A stretch of 20,713 nucleotides of DNA. Source: a virus. Lineage: Duplodnaviria; Heunggongvirae; Uroviricota; Caudoviricetes. The position numbers were made by a program, and so were the translations under genes. The stretch is from positions 1 to 20,713 of the IMG/VR virus record IMGVR_UViG_2703718869_000003. One strand, written 5' to 3'. The notes below the pieces were generated by a model that ran no database searches, was not told the origin of the DNA, and worked only from the letters and a program-made list of their open reading frames with translations. Shown here piece after piece: positions 2,202 to 14,548 of the stretch (position 1 is the stretch's first letter; the number at the start of each line of letters is the position of its first letter).

Positions 2202-3172
2202 CAGGCAGCCTCCGCTTTGAATTTGCGCGTCAACACATGTTCACGGGCTTCACACCCCTGAATGAGCATGTCGTTAAAATCCGGCAAGTCAGGCCAGCGA
2301 ATGCTGACCTTCTCAACGTCATTACGACTCATGAGATTCTTATGCCCACATTTAAAGGCAGCCGCCAGACCTGCGCCGTGCTCATCATTGTCTGCAAAGA
2401 TAATCAGGTGATTAACGCCTGGTGGCGCAATAAACTTCTCCATAAAACCGGAGTTCATTGTTGACCACACATTGCAGCGGAAGATTTGACGGCATGAAAG
2501 CGCAGTTTCGATACCCTCGGCTATCCCCAGAGTGGACGACACCGGATACAGGCGTATTGCCACCGATTTGGCATGCTGCAAACCAGGCAACTCCTGTAGC
2601 GCGGTCATTTTTTTAGCCGCCTCTACATTCGCCTTGCGATCACCATCCAGCAACGTACGATGCAGATAGCAAAGAGAACCTCTGTCATCTGTTGCAATGG
2701 CGTAAATTGCCTGATATTCGCGCCCGCTGGCGATCTGACGGTCACAAAAACGCACGGATTCGGTCGGTAACTGGAGTATTCCCCTCCCCTGCAGGTACGC
2801 CTCACCTGTTGTGCCCCGCAGACACGGGAGTCCGGCAAACTTATCCATGACCAGCTCCCGCTTTCTGCTTATCTCTGTTACAGGCTGGCTGACTTTCTCC
2901 CTCTTCCAGGTATTTCCGATCAGCCGATCGATTTCATCACACAACGTCACCCAGGGCTTACCCGTGGCAAGTTGCAACAACTTCATCCCGTCCCCGTGAC
3001 CACAGACACAAATCCATGAACCGGAACAATCCTTATCATCACAGCGAAATTTACCTCTGGCACCACATATCGGGCAGGGGCCGCTATAATGTTTCAAGCC
3101 AGTAACAGGAGGCATGCCGTAATATTCAAAAATTCGCCCCCAATGCCCGGCCGCTGCCTTCTTAGTCTGCAT
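2201..3172 (-). CDS. DNA primase-like protein: N-terminal Cys-rich zinc ribbon plus Toprim domain
   Basis: Cys cluster CPICGARGKFRCDDKDCSGSWICVCGHGDG. Toprim-like acidic motifs IAEGIETALS and IIFADNDEHGAG. Overlaps the helicase gene by 11 nt. Confidence 0.8.
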   Translation of the reverse strand: MQTKKAAAGHWGRIFEYYGMPPVTGLKHYSGPCPICGARGKFRCDDKDCSGSWICVCGHGDGMKLLQLATGKPWVTLCDEIDRLIGNTWKREKVSQPVTEISRKRELVMDKFAGLPCLRGTTGEAYLQGRGILQLPTESVRFCDRQIASGREYQAIYAIATDDRGSLCYLHRTLLDGDRKANVEAAKKMTALQELPGLQHAKSVAIRLYPVSSTLGIAEGIETALSCRQIFRCNVWSTMNSGFMEKFIAPPGVNHLIIFADNDEHGAGLAAAFKCGHKNLMSRNDVEKVSIRWPDLPDFNDMLIQGCEAREHVLTRKFKAEAA

Positions 3173-4682
3173 GCTGGCCTCCTGTCATGGCTTTCTTGCG
3201 CCCTTTGGCATAGGCAATGGTCTTTGACTTGATGAAGTTGTACACTTCAACTGAGGTTTGCAGCGGCGCATTACTGAAGCCTTTAGGCCACACACCGAAC
3301 TTCTCCTTGTAGGTATGAGCGCACCATCCGTCACTCAGGGGTTTACCCGTCGCGTTGCGGTAATTCTGATAACCCTTGATCTCACTCCACCAACGCTGTT
3401 TTTCCTCACGGGTGTATTCGCGTTTCCCTTTGTTGACGCGTGAAAGCTTACGATCGCGATCTGTCGCCACGTCATCACCACCAAGTGGGCGAAATCCACA
3501 TTTGGGACACATGTGTACACCAGCAGGCTTCATGAAGTGGCATTTGGGGCATTCTCTGGGAAGTTTTTCAGCTTTAACCTCGCCACCGCCAGCAGACGCT
3601 TTCATTCCGTCATTTTTTCCCGGAAGTTCGTCATACTCGATATCCTCGGGGAAGCCCAGCCGATGAACCGTACCGGAATGGTCGAAAATCAATGCGCGTT
3701 TTTTACCAGACGCAGTACGTAACGCTCTCCCGATGCACTGCAACCAGCGGATTTCTGATTTGGTCGGACGGGCGTAGATCAGGCAGCGAACATCGCTGTC
3801 AAATCCCGCAACCAGTACGCCGACGTTGACAATTATTTTGGTCGCACCATCTTCAAAACGGCGAATGATATCCTGCCGTTCATCATGGGGGGTATCTGCC
3901 GTCATCACCTCTGCGCCAATGCCAGACTGTAAAAACTCACGGGTAACAAAGTTCGCATGAGCCACGTTCACGCAGAAGCAGATCGTCGGTAAATCCTCGC
4001 CATTCTCAAGCCAGTTGCTAACGATATCGCCAACCAGATCCGAACTCCCCATGATGGATGCGAGCTGTTCCTCGTTGTAATCCCGTCCAAATACGGTGTT
4101 ACTGGTTTTTACGCCAGTCAGATCAGGCATTGAGGGGGCAAAAAACTCGTAATCGCTCAGATCACCACGCTGAATAAGTTCACGAATCGTTGTAGGCTTG
4201 ATCAGGCATTCGTAGTACTTCCCCATCCAGGCTGCGAATGGGGTGCCGGAAAGTCCAAGAACCCTGATGTCTCTGTCCCGGATAACCTCAAGTAACGCAC
4301 GACGCTTCATGTGTGCTTCATCGATGATCAGCAGATCGATGTTGTCAGGAAACTCACGACGGATCAGCGTGTCGGCACTGGCAATCTGAATCAGTCGTGA
4401 CGGGTCATAGTTAGGGTGATCACGCCATACAAAACTGATTTCTTCCCACGGTAAACCGTATTCGGTGAAACGTTCCGCTGTCTGGTTCAGCAGGATGGTG
4501 TACGGACAGACAAACATCACCCGCATACCACGTTCAACCATTCCGGCGGTGACGAATGCTGCAAGACCAGTTTTGCCAGAGCCAGTGGGTGCGTACATCA
4601 AGTACGTGCGATGCTGTTTCCACTGGTGCCGCAGCTGGTTTAAACCGCGCTCCTGAGCAAAGTTTGGGATTATTTTCAGCAT
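3162..4682 (-). CDS. Superfamily-2 (DEAH-type) replicative helicase with C-terminal Cys4 zinc finger
   Basis: Walker A APTGSGKT, motif II LLIIDEAH, and CPKCHF...CPKCGF Cys4 pair. 506 aa. Sits in the position of lambda O/P. Confidence 0.9.
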   Translation of the reverse strand: MLKIIPNFAQERGLNQLRHQWKQHRTYLMYAPTGSGKTGLAAFVTAGMVERGMRVMFVCPYTILLNQTAERFTEYGLPWEEISFVWRDHPNYDPSRLIQIASADTLIRREFPDNIDLLIIDEAHMKRRALLEVIRDRDIRVLGLSGTPFAAWMGKYYECLIKPTTIRELIQRGDLSDYEFFAPSMPDLTGVKTSNTVFGRDYNEEQLASIMGSSDLVGDIVSNWLENGEDLPTICFCVNVAHANFVTREFLQSGIGAEVMTADTPHDERQDIIRRFEDGATKIIVNVGVLVAGFDSDVRCLIYARPTKSEIRWLQCIGRALRTASGKKRALIFDHSGTVHRLGFPEDIEYDELPGKNDGMKASAGGGEVKAEKLPRECPKCHFMKPAGVHMCPKCGFRPLGGDDVATDRDRKLSRVNKGKREYTREEKQRWWSEIKGYQNYRNATGKPLSDGWCAHTYKEKFGVWPKGFSNAPLQTSVEVYNFIKSKTIAYAKGRKKAMTGGQHAD

Positions 4683-5062
4683 GACGCCCCCTTGCTACGT
4701 GATTTACCCGTTGCCGGGATCACGTCGATCTCATCGCTAACGTATTGATCCGGATTACGTGAACAGCGCAGAAGCACGATACCAGGAATGCCGTATAGCT
4801 TGAGTCTGCGCAGTTTCAGTATTGAACGTGCCCGTGGTGACGCTCTGTCCACCTCGATCGCGCACCGTTCACCAGATGGGGCAACGACCATGATATCGAC
4901 GAATCCGCGCTTACCGTTGCCCATATCAACCAGATAATTACGTTCGATCGCCAGTCCGGCATCACGCAATTTGGCAGCCAGCACATAATCAAACGTGACC
5001 TTGTCTTTTCCGGTGTAGAATTTGTTTCCGAGCAGGCTGATAACCACATGTTTGATGAACAT
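4676..5062 (-). CDS. Hypothetical protein, first gene of the replication cluster; possible PD-(D/E)xK-like fold (speculative)
   Basis: 128-aa ORF overlapping the helicase start by 7 nt. The segment GFVDIMVV...CAIEVDR loosely resembles a nuclease-like beta-strand motif; this is weak. Confidence 0.6.
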   Translation of the reverse strand: MFIKHVVISLLGNKFYTGKDKVTFDYVLAAKLRDAGLAIERNYLVDMGNGKRGFVDIMVVAPSGERCAIEVDRASPRARSILKLRRLKLYGIPGIVLLRCSRNPDQYVSDEIDVIPATGKSRSKGASC

Positions 5063-5894: not shown

Positions 5895-6608
5895 ATGAAC
5901 ATGAAAAAGAAACCGTTAACCCCTGAGCAACTGGAAGACGCCAAGCGTCTGAAAAGTATTTTTAACGCTAAAAAGAAAGAGTTAGGCCTGTCGCAGGAAT
6001 CATTAGCCTATGAATTAGGTGTTACCCAAAGCGCTGTTAATCAGCTAATGGCTGGCATCAACGCCATAAATGCCAGCCACGCAGCACAGCTTGCTAAGAT
6101 ACTGAATGTAAAGGTCGGAGATTTCAGTCCCAGCCTGGCAAAATCTATTGCAGAAATGGCGCTCGCAATTGAAGAGCCATTAACTCGTGTCCCCGCTTAC
6201 GAATATCCGTTACTCTCCTGCGTACAAGCTGGCGCATTCTCAATGGATGATATTTCGTACACCGCAAAAGATGCGATTAAATGGATCTCCACCACCACAA
6301 AAGCCAGTGACAGGTCGTTCTGGCTGGAGGTCAAGGGGCATTCAATGACCGCACCGCAGGGTGGTAAACCCAGCTTCCCTGAAGGTATGCTGATACTCGT
6401 TGACCCTGAACGGGAAATCGAGGATGGCGATTTTTGCGTGGCCCGAATGAACGGCGATGAATTTACCTTCAAACGATTCATTCGTGAGAGCGGTAAAGCG
6501 TACCTGGAGCCGCTCAACCCACGATTCGACATGATTGAGTGTAACGAAAACTGCCAGTTTGTCGGAAAGGTCATCAAATCGCAGTGGAATGATGAGACTT
6601 TTGATTGA
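5895..6608 (+). CDS. cI: CI repressor (lambda cI-like; HTH N-domain plus S24 LexA-like autopeptidase C-domain)
   Basis: Starts [38 protein letters not shown]. Ala-Gly cleavage context VQAGAFS. C-domain [32 protein letters not shown]...[11 protein letters not shown] is close to lambda cI. Confidence 0.95.
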
Positions 6609-6702: not shown

Positions 6703-8172
6703 ATGCTTCAAAAGCTAGACGTCGCAGACAGCGTGCGTCGCGAGCTGTCTCCCCGTACCGCGCGTAAACACAAAGCTGAGTTCGGCCAGTTCATGACGCC
6801 TTCTGGCGTGGCCCGTTTTATGGCCTCCTTGTTTCCACCGAGCACAATGAAAACTTGCCGTCTACTGGACGCAGGCGCTGGTGTAGGCGCACTGTCTTGC
6901 GCCTTCCTCGACCGTTGGCTGGTTGGCGAGTTTGGCTTTGAGTCTGTCGAGGCAACAGCCTACGAAATAGACAAAAAGCTGTGTGGTCACCTTGCGAAGC
7001 ACTTAACCGGGTACAGGAGAGTGACGCCCCGCATCATCGAAGGGGATTATATTGAGCTGGCAACCGCCGAAGGTCTACAGGATCGAGGTTATACCCATGC
7101 AATACTTAATCCGCCTTACAAGAAGATCAATAGCCAGTCAGCCCACCGGCAGGCTCTTCGCACTGTCGGTATCGAGACGGTAAATCTGTATTCCGCCTTT
7201 GTTGCACTGGCTGTAGGTGAGGTTGCACCTGGCGGGCAGATAGTGGCCATAATCCCACGTAGTTTCTGCAACGGACCGTATTACCGTCCGTTCCGTAATT
7301 TCATACTTGAGCGGGCAGCAATCCGCCATATTCATTTGTTCGAATCACGTAGCAAAGCTTTCAGGGATGACGATGTGTTGCAGGAAAATATTATCATCCG
7401 CCTGGAGCGTGGAGGCCTTCAGGAGGCTGTTACAGTCACAACTTCGACCGATGATAGCTTTTTTGACCTGGTCACCTACGAACACCCATTTGACCAAATT
7501 GTGTACCCGGACGATTCGGAGCGGTTTATTCATGTGCCGACCACGCACGAGAAAAGCGCCATTGAGTTATCATCCGCCGTACAATGTTCGCTGGCTGATA
7601 TTGGCGTGAAGGTATCGACCGGACCGATAGTTGATTTCCGACTGAAAGCTCATTTGCGCAGCATGCCCGAAGAAGGAACTGTTCCCCTGATCTACCCGAG
7701 CCATTTGAGTATGAGTAGCACTGTCTGGCCTGTGGAAGGTTTGAAGAAACCCAACGCAATCATGCGCAACGACGAGACAGAAAAGTGGCTTTACCCGAAC
7801 GGTTTTTATTGTGTGGTGCGTCGTTTCTCGTCGAAGGAGGAAAAGCGCCGAGTGGTAGCAAGCGTCGTTGATCCTGCTACCTTCAGTGAGTATTCAGTGT
7901 TGGGATTTGAAAATCACATGAACGTGTTTCATGAGAACAAACATGGGTTACCCGAGGCGCTGGCCCGTGGCTTGGCCGTGTTCCTGAACACTACCGCAGT
8001 GGATAAGTATTTCCGTCGATTCAACGGGCATACACAGGTCAATGCAACCGACCTCAAGATGATTAAGTACCCAAGCCGTGACACTCTGATAGAGCTTGGC
8101 AAGTGGGCTATGCAACAAGAAACTCTCACGCAAGAACATATTGACGCTAAGCTAGGAGCTCTGACTGCATGA
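6703..8172 (+). CDS. N6-adenine DNA methyltransferase (NPPY class); putative M subunit of a PstI/BsuBI-like type II restriction-modification system
   Basis: FxTP motif (FGQFMTPSGVARFM), AdoMet-binding LLDAGAGVGAL, catalytic NPPY (HAILNPPYKK). 489 aa, about the size I recall for M.PstI/M.BsuBI. AAGAGG ribosome-binding site. Confidence 0.85.
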   Translation: MLQKLDVADSVRRELSPRTARKHKAEFGQFMTPSGVARFMASLFPPSTMKTCRLLDAGAGVGALSCAFLDRWLVGEFGFESVEATAYEIDKKLCGHLAKHLTGYRRVTPRIIEGDYIELATAEGLQDRGYTHAILNPPYKKINSQSAHRQALRTVGIETVNLYSAFVALAVGEVAPGGQIVAIIPRSFCNGPYYRPFRNFILERAAIRHIHLFESRSKAFRDDDVLQENIIIRLERGGLQEAVTVTTSTDDSFFDLVTYEHPFDQIVYPDDSERFIHVPTTHEKSAIELSSAVQCSLADIGVKVSTGPIVDFRLKAHLRSMPEEGTVPLIYPSHLSMSSTVWPVEGLKKPNAIMRNDETEKWLYPNGFYCVVRRFSSKEEKRRVVASVVDPATFSEYSVLGFENHMNVFHENKHGLPEALARGLAVFLNTTAVDKYFRRFNGHTQVNATDLKMIKYPSRDTLIELGKWAMQQETLTQEHIDAKLGALTA

Positions 8173-9122
8173 ACAACCAAAATGATTATATTGAGGCCGC
8201 TCAGCAAATTATAGCATCCTTAGGCCTGCCCAGAGCGCAGCAGAATGAGCGTTCTGCTTTGTGTTTGCTGGCACTCCTGAACCTCACACCGGGAAAAGCA
8301 TGGGCCAACGCGGAAAATCCGCTTGTGGGCATTACACCAATCATGAATTGGGTTCGGGAGCACTACGGCAAGGTCTACGCACCCAATACTCGTGAGACAT
8401 TCCGCCGCCAGTCTATGCATCAGTTCTGCGCTGCTGGAGTAGCCCTCTACAATCCGGACAAGCCCGATCGCCCAGTGAACAGCCCGAAGGCTGTTTATCA
8501 GATCGAACCTGCTGCTCTGTCCATGCTACGCACTTTCGGCAGCCCGGCATGGCACGATAGCCTTGCAACCTATTTAGCCGAGCGTGAAACGCTGGTTACC
8601 CGCTATGCTAAGGAGCGCGAACAGAATCGTATCCCTGTTGAAATTGCTGCGGGCCAGCAAATAACCCTCAGTCCCGGCGAGCACAGCGAACTTATCCGTG
8701 CCATAATAGAGGACTTCGCCCCACGTTTTGCTCCGGGTAGCGTGCTGGTCTATGCTGGCGACACTGGCGAAAAGTGGGGCTACTTCGACGCTCCACTGCT
8801 GGCCGGGCTAGGTGTTGATGTGGATTCACACGGTAAAATGCCAGATGTGGTGCTACATTTTACTGCGAAAAACTGGCTGCTACTGGTTGAGTCTGTCACC
8901 AGTCATGGACCGGTTGATGGGAAGCGGCATGCTGAGCTTGCCAGGCTGTTTGCCGGATCAACAGCCGGACTTGTCTATGTGACCGCTTTTCCAAATCGCT
9001 CCATCATGGGACGATATCTTGGTGAAATCGCATGGGAAACAGAGGTATGGGTGGCTGATGCACCTTCTCATCTTATTCACTTCAACGGAGTACGATTTCT
9101 TGGCCCCTACTCTACTGAATGA
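8169..9122 (+). CDS. Putative type II restriction endonuclease, BsuBI/PstI family (assignment by size, synteny and motif; not verified)
   Basis: 317 aa. Start overlaps the methyltransferase stop (ATGA). Contains a PD...E-like segment (GKMPDVVLHF...NWLLLVESVTSHG). Followed by an intrinsic terminator. Confidence 0.55.
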   Translation: MNNQNDYIEAAQQIIASLGLPRAQQNERSALCLLALLNLTPGKAWANAENPLVGITPIMNWVREHYGKVYAPNTRETFRRQSMHQFCAAGVALYNPDKPDRPVNSPKAVYQIEPAALSMLRTFGSPAWHDSLATYLAERETLVTRYAKEREQNRIPVEIAAGQQITLSPGEHSELIRAIIEDFAPRFAPGSVLVYAGDTGEKWGYFDAPLLAGLGVDVDSHGKMPDVVLHFTAKNWLLLVESVTSHGPVDGKRHAELARLFAGSTAGLVYVTAFPNRSIMGRYLGEIAWETEVWVADAPSHLIHFNGVRFLGPYSTE

Positions 9123-12025: not shown

Positions 12026-12307
12026 ATGAACGCATACCTCACCTGCGACCGCATAGAGGAGCGTCGCTGGGTTAATCAGCAAATTCAGGATGAAAAGGAT
12101 AAATGGATTGATGATCGGGCGCAGGAGCTTATCAGCATGTTCCCCGATAAACCATTGCTTATGAGCAGCCTTTTTTTACCCAAAGAAGCCCAGCTGGCAC
12201 TCACTGGCGAAAAAGCTGAAGAGGCGTACAACGATTATATCTCAGCGATCGCCTATGCTCGGGCGGAAGAAGAATGGGAGAGAAAATTCTCCCCCTGTCC
12301 TTTCTGA
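12026..12307 (+). CDS. gam: Gam-like host-nuclease (RecBCD) inhibitor
   Basis: MNAYLTCDRIEERRWVNQQIQDEKDKW... parallels the short form of lambda Gam ([27 protein letters not shown]...). It sits immediately upstream of the annealase and exo genes as in lambda. AGGAG ribosome-binding site. Confidence 0.6.
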   Translation: MNAYLTCDRIEERRWVNQQIQDEKDKWIDDRAQELISMFPDKPLLMSSLFLPKEAQLALTGEKAEEAYNDYISAIAYARAEEEWERKFSPCPF

Positions 12308-12324: not shown

Positions 12325-13275
12325 ATGTTCGATATCGTTGAATTTGTTAAGCAGCAGGAGCGCTTTTTCTGCGAGGCATTAACTGAACCGACGCTGACAT
12401 GGGCGAAGGAAAGTCAGTTTGCAATTCAGCAATTCCAGAAAAATGCCTTTCTGGCTGACACAGCACGGGCAAATCTGCCCAGCGCACAGAACGCTATCAT
12501 CAATGTTGCCGCCATCGGCATAACCCTGAACCCGGCCAGCAAGCTGGCGTATCTGGTCCCACGAAAAAAGGCTGTATGCCTGGATATCAGTTATATGGGG
12601 CTTCTGCATCTGGCACAGGTCACAGGAGCCATTCAGTGGGGGCAATGCAAACTTGTTTACGAGAAGGACATTTACGAGTCCAACGGTATTGACTGCGCCC
12701 CCACGCACAAATACAACCCATTCGTAGACAGGGGCGCACGCATTGGCGGTTATTGTGTCGTAAAAACATCCGAAGGCGACTATCTGACCGAAGAGATGAG
12801 CAACAGGGAAATCGAGGTCATCAGGGCGTGCAGCAAAGCCGGAAATAACGGAGGAAGTAGCCCGTGGGATAGCTTCCCCGACGAAATGGCCAGAAAAGCC
12901 ATTGTTAAGCGCGCCAGCAAATACTGGCCCCGTCGCGATCGCCTGGATACAGCTATCGACTACCTGAACACTCAGGCCGGTGAAGGTATCATCCTGAATG
13001 CTGATCACATCCCTGAGCGTGACGTCACTCCCGCATCAGATGAGATTATCAATGAGATCACTCAGGCAATCACCGAAATTAACAAGACATGGGATGACCT
13101 GCTTCCCTTATGTTCCAAAACATTCCGTCGCACGATTGCATCACATGAATATCTCAGTCAGGAAGAAGCTGTCAAAACGCTTGATTTTGTCAAAAAGAAA
13201 GCTGCCAGAAACAAGGCCACGGCGGAAGCGAAAATTCACGCCACCACGGAAAATAACAGCGAGGCCGTGTCATGA
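12325..13275 (+). CDS. recT: Single-strand annealing protein: RecT-family core with a lambda Bet (Red-beta)-like C-terminal domain
   Basis: Core motifs resemble RecT (…[16 protein letters not shown]…[14 protein letters not shown]). The C-terminal ~60 aa ([64 protein letters not shown]) parallels the lambda Bet C-terminus as I recall it. Start is ambiguous: ATG at 12325 or the upstream in-frame ATG at 12274. Confidence 0.8.
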
Positions 13276-13961
13276 CACCAGAAATTATTCTCCAGCGAAC
13301 TGGCGTGGATATTACCAGCCTCGACCAGGGCGATGATGGATGGCACAAGCTGAGACTCGGTGTTATCACTGCTTCAGAAGTTCACAATGTGATAGCAAAG
13401 CCACGTTCCGGCAGCAAATGGCCTGATACAAAAATCTCATACTTCCACACCCTGCTGGCTGAAGTTTGTACCGGCGTGGCACCGGAAGTTAACGCTAAGT
13501 CGCTCGCATGGGGAAAGCAATACGAAGATGATGCCCGTGCCCTCTTCGAATTTATCGCGGATGTTACCGTCTCGGAAACGCCAATAATTTTTCGTGACGA
13601 AAGCATGCGCACCGCCTGCTCTCCCGACGGTTTATGCAGCGACGGTAACGGTCTTGAGCTTAAATGCCCTTTTACTTCCCGCGACTTCATGAAATTCCGG
13701 CTTGGCGGCCTTGACGCTATCAAGCCTGCTTACATGGCCCAGGTGCAATTCAGCATGTGGGTTACAGACAAGGACGCCTGGTACTTCGCCAACTACGACC
13801 CACGCATGAAGCGTGAAGGCCTGCATTATGTCGTGGTCGAACGGGATGAAAAGTACATGGCGAGTTTTGATGAGATGGTGCCGGAGTTTATCGACAAAAT
13901 GGACGAAGCACTGGCGGAAATTGGTTTTGTATTTGGAGAACAATGGGGGGTTAATAACTAA
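13272..13961 (+). CDS. exo: Lambda-type 5'-3' exonuclease (Red-alpha / YqaJ family)
   Basis: [47 protein letters not shown]...[20 protein letters not shown]...[14 protein letters not shown] matches lambda Exo almost throughout from memory. ATGA overlap with the annealase stop. Confidence 0.95.
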
Positions 13962-14548
13962 TGGATGAAGTGATTTTTACTTATAACGAAGAATCAGCAC
14001 TGACCGCCGGACAAGGTGGTTTTATTACCGAAACGGGTGCGCATATCATTAACATCACCGAAGCAGAACTCAAGCAATCAGAAAAAGGTGCCCGATTCAT
14101 TGAGTTTTCTGGAGAATCCGACGACGGACGGAAAATCCAATATCTCAGTGTTTGTGTTCAGAAGAATGACGGCACTGAAAATAAATTTGGGGCGAGCATT
14201 ATTCACGCCATGATGGGATGCACAGGAATTGGGCAGTTAACGCAGCATATGGTTTCCGTCAGTAAATATGTTGCACCTGAGTTTCACGGAAAGAAAATCG
14301 GACTCGTCCTCCAGAAAGTATTAACCACAAACAGAAAGACTGGCGCAGACGGTTACCAGATGGAAATCTGCATTCCATTCATTGCAGAAACAGGGCAGAC
14401 ACTGAAAGAAAAAGCTGAAGGAAAGAAACCAGAAACGGTAGCAAATATGGTTTCCACTCTCAAAGACAAAGACAATCGCAGAAAAAACGTAAACCCGAAT
14501 CACACGGACGCCCCGGGTTACTGGCAGTACGGCAGCGATAGTTTTTAA
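13961..14548 (+). CDS. Hypothetical protein coupled to exo (1-nt overlap); function unknown
   Basis: 195-aa ORF. No motif I can assign. C-terminus ends ...GYWQYGSDSF. Confidence 0.6.
   Translation: MDEVIFTYNEESALTAGQGGFITETGAHIINITEAELKQSEKGARFIEFSGESDDGRKIQYLSVCVQKNDGTENKFGASIIHAMMGCTGIGQLTQHMVSVSKYVAPEFHGKKIGLVLQKVLTTNRKTGADGYQMEICIPFIAETGQTLKEKAEGKKPETVANMVSTLKDKDNRRKNVNPNHTDAPGYWQYGSDSF

Follow-up and report, generated by a model that had tools for sequence, protein, structure and literature searches.

A RecT-type annealase with a Redβ-like C-terminal domain is encoded beside a lambda-type exonuclease in a Stx2a-converting phage

We analyzed a pair of recombination genes in a 20,713-nucleotide stretch of viral DNA (IMG/VR record IMGVR_UViG_2703718869_000003, positions 1 to 20,713; the whole stretch is called the window below). 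The upstream gene encodes a single-strand annealing protein (annealase), and the downstream gene encodes a lambda-type exonuclease (Exo). The annealase consists of a RecT-subfamily core and, beyond a disordered linker, a C-terminal domain (CTD) homologous to that of lambda Redβ (Bet). Based on domain architecture, homologies, gene arrangement, co-distribution, co-variation, and mosaic divergence, it is probable that this mosaic protein works with the downstream exo product as a lambda-Red-like two-component recombinase in which the CTD is an adaptor cassette that stays with exo. A first-pass annotation, made from the DNA letters alone, had read the gene pair as a natural domain swap; the sequence strings that it quoted all lie in the open reading frame (ORF) at 12325-13275, which encodes 316 amino acids plus a stop and not the 317 that it counted.

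The core of the annealase matched PF03837 with 86.9 bits (cut-off 24, E 1.7e-24, residues 31-204) and TIGR00616 (rect) with 65.8 bits, over the 52.65-bit cut-off for the RecT subfamily. No match to TIGR01913 (bet_lambda) was found at E ≤ 0.01, although lambda Bet itself scored 169.5 bits, and for lambda Bet the assignment was reversed (bet_lambda and not rect). The window annealase fell in phrog_148 (RecT-like), with a match across residues 4-315 that includes the CTD, and lambda Bet in phrog_252 (Bet-like). The score against the Rac RecT equivalog NF007351 was 71.8 bits, below its cut-off of 296. When BLASTP was run against lambda Bet (NC_001416), nothing was aligned for annealase residues 1-177. 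An AlphaFold2 (AF2) model built on 42 homologues had an overall predicted local distance difference test score (pLDDT) of 83, with values of ~90 in the core (residues 1-214) and <50 in the linker (residues 215-231). For the predicted RecT-type core fold, the top PDB match in Foldseek was LiRecT (7ub2, E 2e-6, 197 columns), and none of the 50 PDB matches listed was a structure of the Redβ N-terminal domain (NTD). By these profile and fold matches, the core is a member of the RecT subfamily and is neither a Rac RecT equivalog nor a Bet. The RecT-like body proposed earlier is borne out by PF03837, TIGR00616, and phrog_148; the description of the annealase as one "of a different family" holds for the subfamilies, but not for Pfam, where the Bet and window cores both fall in PF03837.

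The remainder of the protein gave a different result. A phmmer search of PDB sequences aligned annealase residues 225-299 with the Redβ CTD chains 8tfu_A (E 8.2e-19) and 6m9k_D (E 1.1e-14) and with no others, and BLASTP against lambda Bet gave 43% identity across residues 178-300 (E 5e-24). These E-values are far beyond chance. The CTD of the AF2 model (pLDDT 86-92) contains helices at residues 239-251, 256-266, and 279 onward, the counterpart of the three-helix CTD of Redβ (lambda residues ~183-261), and its Foldseek alignments with 6M9K and 8TFU had a TM of 0.88-0.94, a root mean square deviation (rmsd) of 0.6-0.9 Å, and 52-55% identity. After the CTD comes a low-pLDDT tail of 17 residues (300-316), which neither lambda Bet nor phi80 Rec has. 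The earlier statement that the last ~60 residues are Bet-like was right as to homology (8tfu_A), but the Bet-like part extends over ~75 residues and is not the end of the protein. A family switch along the protein is present at the linker (~215-231), and the alternative of an ordinary Bet or an ordinary RecT failed in the alignments. These matches make the CTD a homologue of the Exo-docking domain of Redβ, and by analogy it would bind Exo in the window pair.

The adjacent nuclease is 86.7% identical to lambda Exo across 225 amino acids (BLASTP), and it matched PF09588 (YqaJ) with 98.3 bits; its score against TIGR03033 was 54.6 bits, under the 68.05-bit cut-off. The SPDG...LELKCP stretch, which we take to be the location of the lambda Exo catalytic residues, is the same as in lambda, and L91 and F94 are kept. 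On these comparisons, the nuclease is a member of the lambda Exo family. The annealase stop and the exo start overlap (ATGA, 13272-13275), as the first-pass annotation had described for a near-lambda Exo, and a GAGG sits 7 nt upstream of the exo ATG. This ribosome-binding site (13261-13264) lies inside the DNA that codes for the annealase C-terminal extension. The annealase and 5′-3′ exonuclease genes are adjacent and co-oriented, which is the SynExo / EATR arrangement. The annealase start at ATG 12325 is the same as that of an identical database protein (P0030, 316 amino acids) and agrees with the N termini of homologues; an alternative in-frame ATG at 12274 would give a 333-amino acid product and a 34-nt overlap with the gam-like gene. 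The database cluster of the window annealase (grouped at 90% identity and named "recombinase RecT") contains 831 member sequences.

Contact between the Bet CTD and lambda Exo, to which the earlier annotation had referred, was shown experimentally (Caldwell 2019, PMC6393309). When the lambda proteins associate, T90, L91, F94, and T95 of Exo helix E enter a CTD pocket of L223, I227, F249, and L250, and the complex is lost on mutating Exo L91 or F94 or Redβ L223 or F249 (PMC6393309). The Redβ CTD also binds the C-terminal tail of the single-strand DNA-binding protein (SSB) at a site that overlaps the Exo site (PMC6393309), and 8TFU and 8TG7 contain the Redβ CTD with an SSB C-terminal peptide bound (PDB titles). 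All four complex-essential residues are kept in the window pair (annealase L262 and F288, Exo L91 and F94), and its predicted Exo/SSB-binding pocket comprises L262, T266, F288, and V289. When Exo positions 90/91/94/95 and CTD positions 223/227/249/250 (lambda numbering) were compared among lineages, the residues were TLFT and LIFL in the lambda group, ALFI and LTFV in the window, LLFE and ALSM in Yersinia/Serratia, and MTFY and FKML in Morganella/Proteus/Xenorhabdus. This pattern is compatible with docking in a conserved mode and co-evolution within each lineage, and from the kept and co-varying interface residues we infer a specific physical annealase-Exo complex. The ratio of nonsynonymous to synonymous divergence (dN/dS) of the CTD was 0.10-0.42 in every comparison with an estimable synonymous divergence (dS), indicating that the CTD is under purifying selection.

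The comparative set comprised about 120 related loci overall, taken from one genome per species and from phage records. The C termini and neighbours of 80 RecT-core loci from species-representative genomes were typed with hidden Markov models (HMMs) built from phage examples. A lambda-type Exo was encoded directly downstream at each of the 27 loci with a Bet-like CTD (27/27, 287-405 bits). Another 15 loci, with cores 68-71% identical to that of the window, carried an E212-type C terminus, and no lambda-type nuclease was found within 3.5 kb of any of them. Downstream of 14 of these 15 annealases was a ~160-amino acid ORF, typed by an HMM built from E212 and PA-1 and identified for the E212 copy as Pfam Sipho_Gp157 (PF05565); the remaining locus is at a contig end. 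The other 38 loci, mostly from beta- and gamma-proteobacteria, had other or truncated C termini and either distant YqaJ nucleases or none.

The E212-type tail and its Gp157-type neighbour (L013-L025, L032, and L048 of the comparative set, for example L016 at 3441-4867, and E212 itself, L004, at 2501-3869) may be a second partner-specific pairing. The record name "Mu Gam-like" given to the ORF after the E212 and PA-1 annealases was not borne out, as Pfam assigns it to Sipho_Gp157. Two contigs of ~1.9 kb, L014 (NZ_JBFAML010000068.1, Micromonospora sp.) and L015 (NZ_JBEOWA010000074.1, Streptomyces sp.), encode an E212-like annealase (core 70%) and the E212/PA-1-type ORF; these enterobacterial-type annealases are probably assembly contamination.

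Bet-type cores were also found apart from the Redβ CTD. Phages of Pasteurella, Pseudomonas, Ralstonia, Acinetobacter, and Iodobacter encode cores that share 51-68% identity with the NTD of lambda Bet; the core of Serratia phage Eta shares 39%. All of these proteins diverge completely after the motif GIYDxDEAERI (Bet residue ~178), and none gave a CTD-HMM match at E ≤ 10. The nucleases that accompany the CTD-less Bet-type cores are a ~205-amino acid YqaJ protein, a DUF3799/PD-(D/E)XK protein annotated as RecE/exonuclease VIII, or a 531-amino acid YqaJ protein. Klebsiella phage Mulock has a TIGR01913 core that could not be aligned by BLAST with the lambda Bet NTD, the same CTD, and an Exo 84.5% identical to that of lambda. 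Several Bet-type annealases from non-enteric phages end in short acidic tails like the SSB tip DDDIPF: ...TDDDVPFE in Serratia phage Eta, ...RRDEIPAF in Ralstonia Albius, ...GEDIPL in Pasteurella Pm86, and ...EDELPM in Iodobacter PLPE (L089 3200-3283, L091 3330-3418, L093 3350-3436, and L094 3260-3340). These tails may mimic SSB tails to reach a nuclease or host SSB-interacting proteins.

Pairwise identities were compared across 29 triplets of RecT core, Bet-like CTD, and Exo. The identity of the CTD followed that of Exo (Spearman 0.91, Mantel p 5e-4) more closely than that of the core (Spearman 0.41), and partial correlations were 0.89 for CTD and Exo given the core and 0.03 for CTD and core given Exo. 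The window protein is itself incongruent in this way. The closest cores to that of the window (L010-L012, 73%) are joined to CTDs that are only 27-34% identical and accompanied by Exo proteins that are 50-58% identical, and for L033/L034 the corresponding values are 48-49% for the core, 63% for the CTD, and 80-82% for Exo. Values of dS for the core, CTD, and exo were 0.24, 1.07, and 0.43, respectively, between phi80 and L028, and 1.9, 1.08, and 0.31 between L010 and L043. Synonymous divergence is thus mosaic, with a jump at the linker. The modular C-terminal partner specificity predicted in the first-pass annotation is matched by these comparative data, both in the exchange of the CTD and in its co-variation with Exo.

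At L028, which has a ~200-nt gap between annealase and exo, the CTD dS against phi80 is ~2.5- to 4-fold above the flanks. The related locus L029 has an Exo 89% identical to that of phi80, and the CobraSix CTD is one residue apart from that of L028. Across the positions compared (L028 3483-5286, CobraSix, L095, 1799-3393, and phi80, L003, 2989-4583), the pattern looks like replacement of the CTD alone.

The architecture is not confined to the window. Among the 120 best homologues of its annealase (57-100% identity), ~86 have a Bet-like C terminus (Serratia, Yersinia, Morganella, Providencia, Proteus, Klebsiella, and Rosenbergiella) and ~30 an E212-type one (Salmonella, Enterobacter, Klebsiella, and Lelliottia). 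Phi80 Rec (305 amino acids) is 54% identical to the window annealase over its full length; in its last 76 residues it shares 74% identity with lambda Bet, its core has no alignment with the lambda Bet core, and the Exo encoded downstream is 85% identical to that of lambda. A RecT core with a Bet-like CTD is therefore the standard architecture of a large clade of enterobacterial prophage annealases and not a single event in this phage. The CTD has been exchanged between cores, as the domain-swap claim held, but the case is not singular, being shared with phi80 Rec, CobraSix, and prophages in Serratia, Yersinia, Morganella, Proteus, Klebsiella, and further genera.

The sequences favor neither direction for the swap, including the one proposed, in which the resident exonuclease's tail would have passed to a RecT. 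Nucleotide homology between phi80 and lambda is 75% over 908 nt, from ~Bet residue 185 (the CTD start) through exo, but similarity between the window and lambda begins only at the exo start codon. A recent CTD transfer from lambda itself was rejected on this ground and on the 52% identity of the CTDs. No recent donor of the window CTD is visible.

Searches with the CTD alone returned 7 short fragments only from a collection of 5.8 billion proteins, and 22 matches, mostly short fragments and with no new architectures, from a library of 1.84 billion representatives. An alignment of five CTD sequences searched against IMG/VR gave 80 loci, each with 99-100% identity to the CTD of lambda Bet, and no new cores. 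In Stx2a phages JNE082642, JNE102208, and JNE082796, the annealase is 99% identical to that of the window up to ~residue 230, where an insertion follows. In L002 (LC727855.1, 3001-5000), this insertion lies at ~window 13017 and contains two transposase-like ORFs (296 and 108 amino acids) on the opposite strand; it removes the CTD and parts the core from the downstream sequence. Natural tail replacement in the phages that match residues 1-230 only was rejected, as the transposase ORFs identify an insertion sequence (IS) in the linker.

By homology to lambda Red, the proposed mechanism would begin with resection of the 5′ strand of a DNA end by the Exo trimer. The annealase CTD would clamp Exo helix E in its hydrophobic pocket (L262/T266/F288/V289 against Exo A90/L91/F94/I95), and this docking would place the RecT-type core for loading onto the 3′ single strand as it emerges. 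That pocket could then bind the C-terminal tail of host SSB and bring the filament to the lagging strand, where it would anneal at the replication fork. Binding, loading, hand-off to SSB, and recombinase activity of this pair are thus proposed by analogy; the orthologue from phi80 is a working recombinase in vivo (De Paepe 2014, PMC3945230). Recombination in the linker would repeatedly have joined the CTD to unrelated cores of the RecT/Redβ superfamily (those of lambda Bet, the divergent Mulock Bet, and the phi80 and window RecT types). The window protein is mosaic in this sense, with a core nearest to lineages that have other CTD/Exo subtypes or no Exo, and with a CTD and Exo of a lambda-like subtype.

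Several observations weigh against this proposal. Coupling of CTD and Exo is not absolute, because between phi80 and L028 (amino-acid identities of 100% for the core, 58% for the CTD, and 98% for Exo) the CTD changed and Exo stayed near-constant; a single Exo type appears to be served by more than one allele of the CTD. Two pocket residues (I227 to T266 and L250 to V289) and two ridge residues of Exo (T90 to A and T95 to I) differ from lambda, and the docking geometry may differ with them. The sample falls short of a full phylogenetic reconciliation. In addition, the Bet-like CTDs found were all from Enterobacterales, plus one Pseudoalteromonas phage, and host SSB could be a confounding driver of this distribution. 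That last point, together with the overlap of the SSB and Exo sites on the Redβ CTD (PMC6393309) and the exchange of CTD alleles against a near-constant Exo (phi80 and L028), favors a CTD that is primarily an adaptor for host SSB and whose association with Exo would follow from a common host range and tight physical linkage, not from docking. We regard this explanation as unlikely. Salmonella, Enterobacter, and Klebsiella also host E212-type annealases, which carry another C terminus where Exo is absent, the CTD-Exo correlation is 0.91, and contact residues co-vary on both sides. Linkage alone is insufficient for the asymmetry, because the CTD lies as close to its own core as to exo and yet is decoupled from the core. 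A contribution of SSB to the role of the CTD, beside Exo docking, is nevertheless likely.

Exchange at the linker also has to be weighed against vertical descent at unequal rates, in which an ancestral RecT/Redβ protein already had the CTD and the cores diverged as the CTD and Exo were conserved. The common PF03837 membership of the cores, a lambda/window BLAST alignment that reaches back to residue 178 in the last conserved core helix, and the wide occurrence of the architecture within one RecT clade are compatible with such a history. It is nonetheless very improbable, given that each core type has much closer relatives without the CTD (E212-type, 66-71%; Pasteurella/Pseudomonas Bet, 66-68%), that CTD identity is uncorrelated with the core once Exo is accounted for (partial 0.03), that synonymous divergence changes several-fold at the linker, and that the phi80 CTD is 74% identical to that of lambda when the cores cannot be aligned. 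We give almost no credence to the proposal that the CTD is functionally irrelevant, either as a relic or because annealase and Exo have ceased to interact, which would leave the annealase to work by itself as a single-strand DNA recombineering protein does. The two pocket and two ridge residues unlike those of lambda would suit a relic, and the IS at the linker of related Stx2a phages indicates that loss of the CTD is tolerated in prophages. Against this are a dN/dS well below 1 (0.10-0.42), a fold predicted at pLDDT 86-92, retention of the essential hydrophobic residues and of translational coupling to exo, and the 831 database sequences in the protein's 90%-identity cluster.

The adaptor-cassette reading can be taken further, although we hold this extension only tentatively and think it somewhat more apt to be wrong than right. 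The linker would be a selected recombination joint, the CTD plus exo would be a cassette portable to any annealase core, and lineage-specific interface codes would make orthogonal pairs among co-resident prophages. The apparently reciprocal Exo T95I and CTD I227T of the window, alongside L250V and Exo T90A, are a candidate for such a code. If the extension is correct, partner specificity could be read and re-engineered through a few CTD and helix-E residues, and a CTD graft alone could re-pair RecT-type recombineering proteins with lambda Exo.

The window module was compared with known systems. It resembles lambda Red in gene order (gam, annealase, and exo, with an overlapping stop and start), in an Exo that is 87% identical, and in a homologous three-helix CTD (52-55% identity, model rmsd <1 Å) that keeps the complex-essential residues. 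Unlike lambda Red, its core is not Bet-type (no TIGR01913 match, no BLAST alignment before residue 178, another PHROG, and LiRecT as the best fold), and it has I227T, L250V, Exo T90A and T95I, the extra 17-residue tail, and a short GamL-type Gam. Closer relatives are phi80 Rec ("RecTΦ80") with its Exo and the CobraSix-type system, which combine GamL, a RecT core with a Bet-like CTD, and a lambda-type Exo; the phi80 core, however, is of another subclade (56%), its CTD is nearer to that of lambda (74%) than to that of the window (58%), and it has no C-terminal extension. Rac RecT with RecE shares the TIGR00616 core and is likewise a two-component exonuclease/annealase system with a pair-specific interaction (PMC11611040), but the window protein is not an NF007351 equivalog, and its partner is a trimeric nuclease of the lambda Exo/YqaJ type and not RecE. 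LiRecT (Listeria phage A118, 7UB2) is the best structural match to the window core, at 15% identity, and has ~26 residues after the core compared with the ~70-residue CTD (PMC11611040). The E212/Salmonella-type RecT found with Sipho_Gp157 has a core (66-71%) nearer to that of the window than the phi80 core is, but its C-terminal ~75 residues are different, being predicted as three helices without a Foldseek match to the Redβ CTD, and a PF05565 (Gp157) ORF lies downstream in place of the adjacent exonuclease.

The Redβ CTD has been stated to be without significant sequence homology to other proteins (PMC6393309), phi80 RecT has been described only as 32% identical to Redβ (De Paepe, PMC3945230), and a 2023 review called it unknown whether the RecT C terminus works like that of Redβ (PMC11611040). 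In the full-text literature searched, no description of a natural chimera of a RecT core and a Bet CTD was found; an earlier mention elsewhere is possible. Both genes have been known and annotated for a long time; the novelty lies in reading the protein domain by domain and in the comparative data that point to a CTD-exo cassette. At the loci examined, many RecT-type annealases carry the Redβ CTD, and they do so only with a lambda-type Exo adjacent. The repeated swaps at the linker are a natural experiment that supports a modular C-terminal determinant of partnering with the exonuclease and probably also with SSB, and they suggest concrete chimeras and point swaps for recombineering. They also carry a warning for annotation, as the names "RecT" and "Bet" hide domain mosaics. 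The surprise is moderate, because phage mosaicism at domain boundaries is expected, and in other respects the locus is a lambda-Red-like module of the ordinary kind in a Shiga-toxin phage.

The window covers the early region of a Stx2a-converting phage with a short tail, and as a whole it aligned with such phages at ~96% identity. For the 1.6-kb annealase-exo stretch, identity was 99.5% with Escherichia phage Lyz12581Vzw and 99.4% with both TL-2011c and the O104:H4 phage P13374. Gene order was taken from the RefSeq annotation of Lyz12581Vzw and from our own family scans (Table 1).

Table 1. Features of the window, in gene order, with the parts of the annealase and of Exo
Feature	Coordinates	Strand	Basis or remark
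cI	5895-6608		First in the gene order listed
Restriction-modification pair, PstI/BsuBI-type	6703-9122		Between cI and the Rha/AntA-type regulator genes
Rha-like and AntA-like regulator genes			After the restriction-modification pair
kil			After the Rha/AntA-like regulators; placed from the Lyz12581Vzw annotation only
gam-like host-nuclease inhibitor, GamL type, 93 aa	12026..12307	+	phrog_1050, E 9.6e-49; opens the recombination module
Annealase, 316 aa (RecT-type core, linker, Redβ-type CTD, short tail)	12325..13275	+	
RecT-subfamily DNA-binding/oligomerisation core, residues 1-214	12325..12966	+	PF03837, TIGR00616, AF2, Foldseek
Disordered linker, residues 215-231, mosaic joint	12967..13017	+	pLDDT <50; E212-type relatives cease to match here
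Three-helix CTD homologous to lambda Redβ CTD, residues 232-299	13018..13221	+	phmmer against PDB, Foldseek
17-residue C-terminal extension, residues 300-316	13222..13272	+	Alignment, low pLDDT
Lambda-type 5′-3′ exonuclease, 229 aa	13272..13961	+	PF09588 YqaJ 6.9e-28, 86.7% to lambda Exo
Exo residues 83-95, helix E equivalent, predicted Redβ-CTD docking ridge (Q83, D87, A90, L91, F94, I95)	13518..13556	+	Residue mapping; contacts per PMC6393309
195-aa protein, PHROG annotated as single-strand DNA-binding protein	13961..14548	+	phrog_743, 6.1e-68
DUF2303 and further genes			After the 13961-14548 gene

In phi80 and CobraSix, too, rec is preceded by a GamL-type gene. The 195-amino acid SSB-like protein had no Pfam or NCBIfam matches. 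Its start overlaps the exo stop (TAATG); the gene is probably translated together with the recombination genes, and its product is possibly a further member of the recombination module. The restriction-modification pair comprises a 489-amino acid protein with an Eco57I-family methylase domain and a 317-amino acid BsuBI/PstI-type endonuclease.

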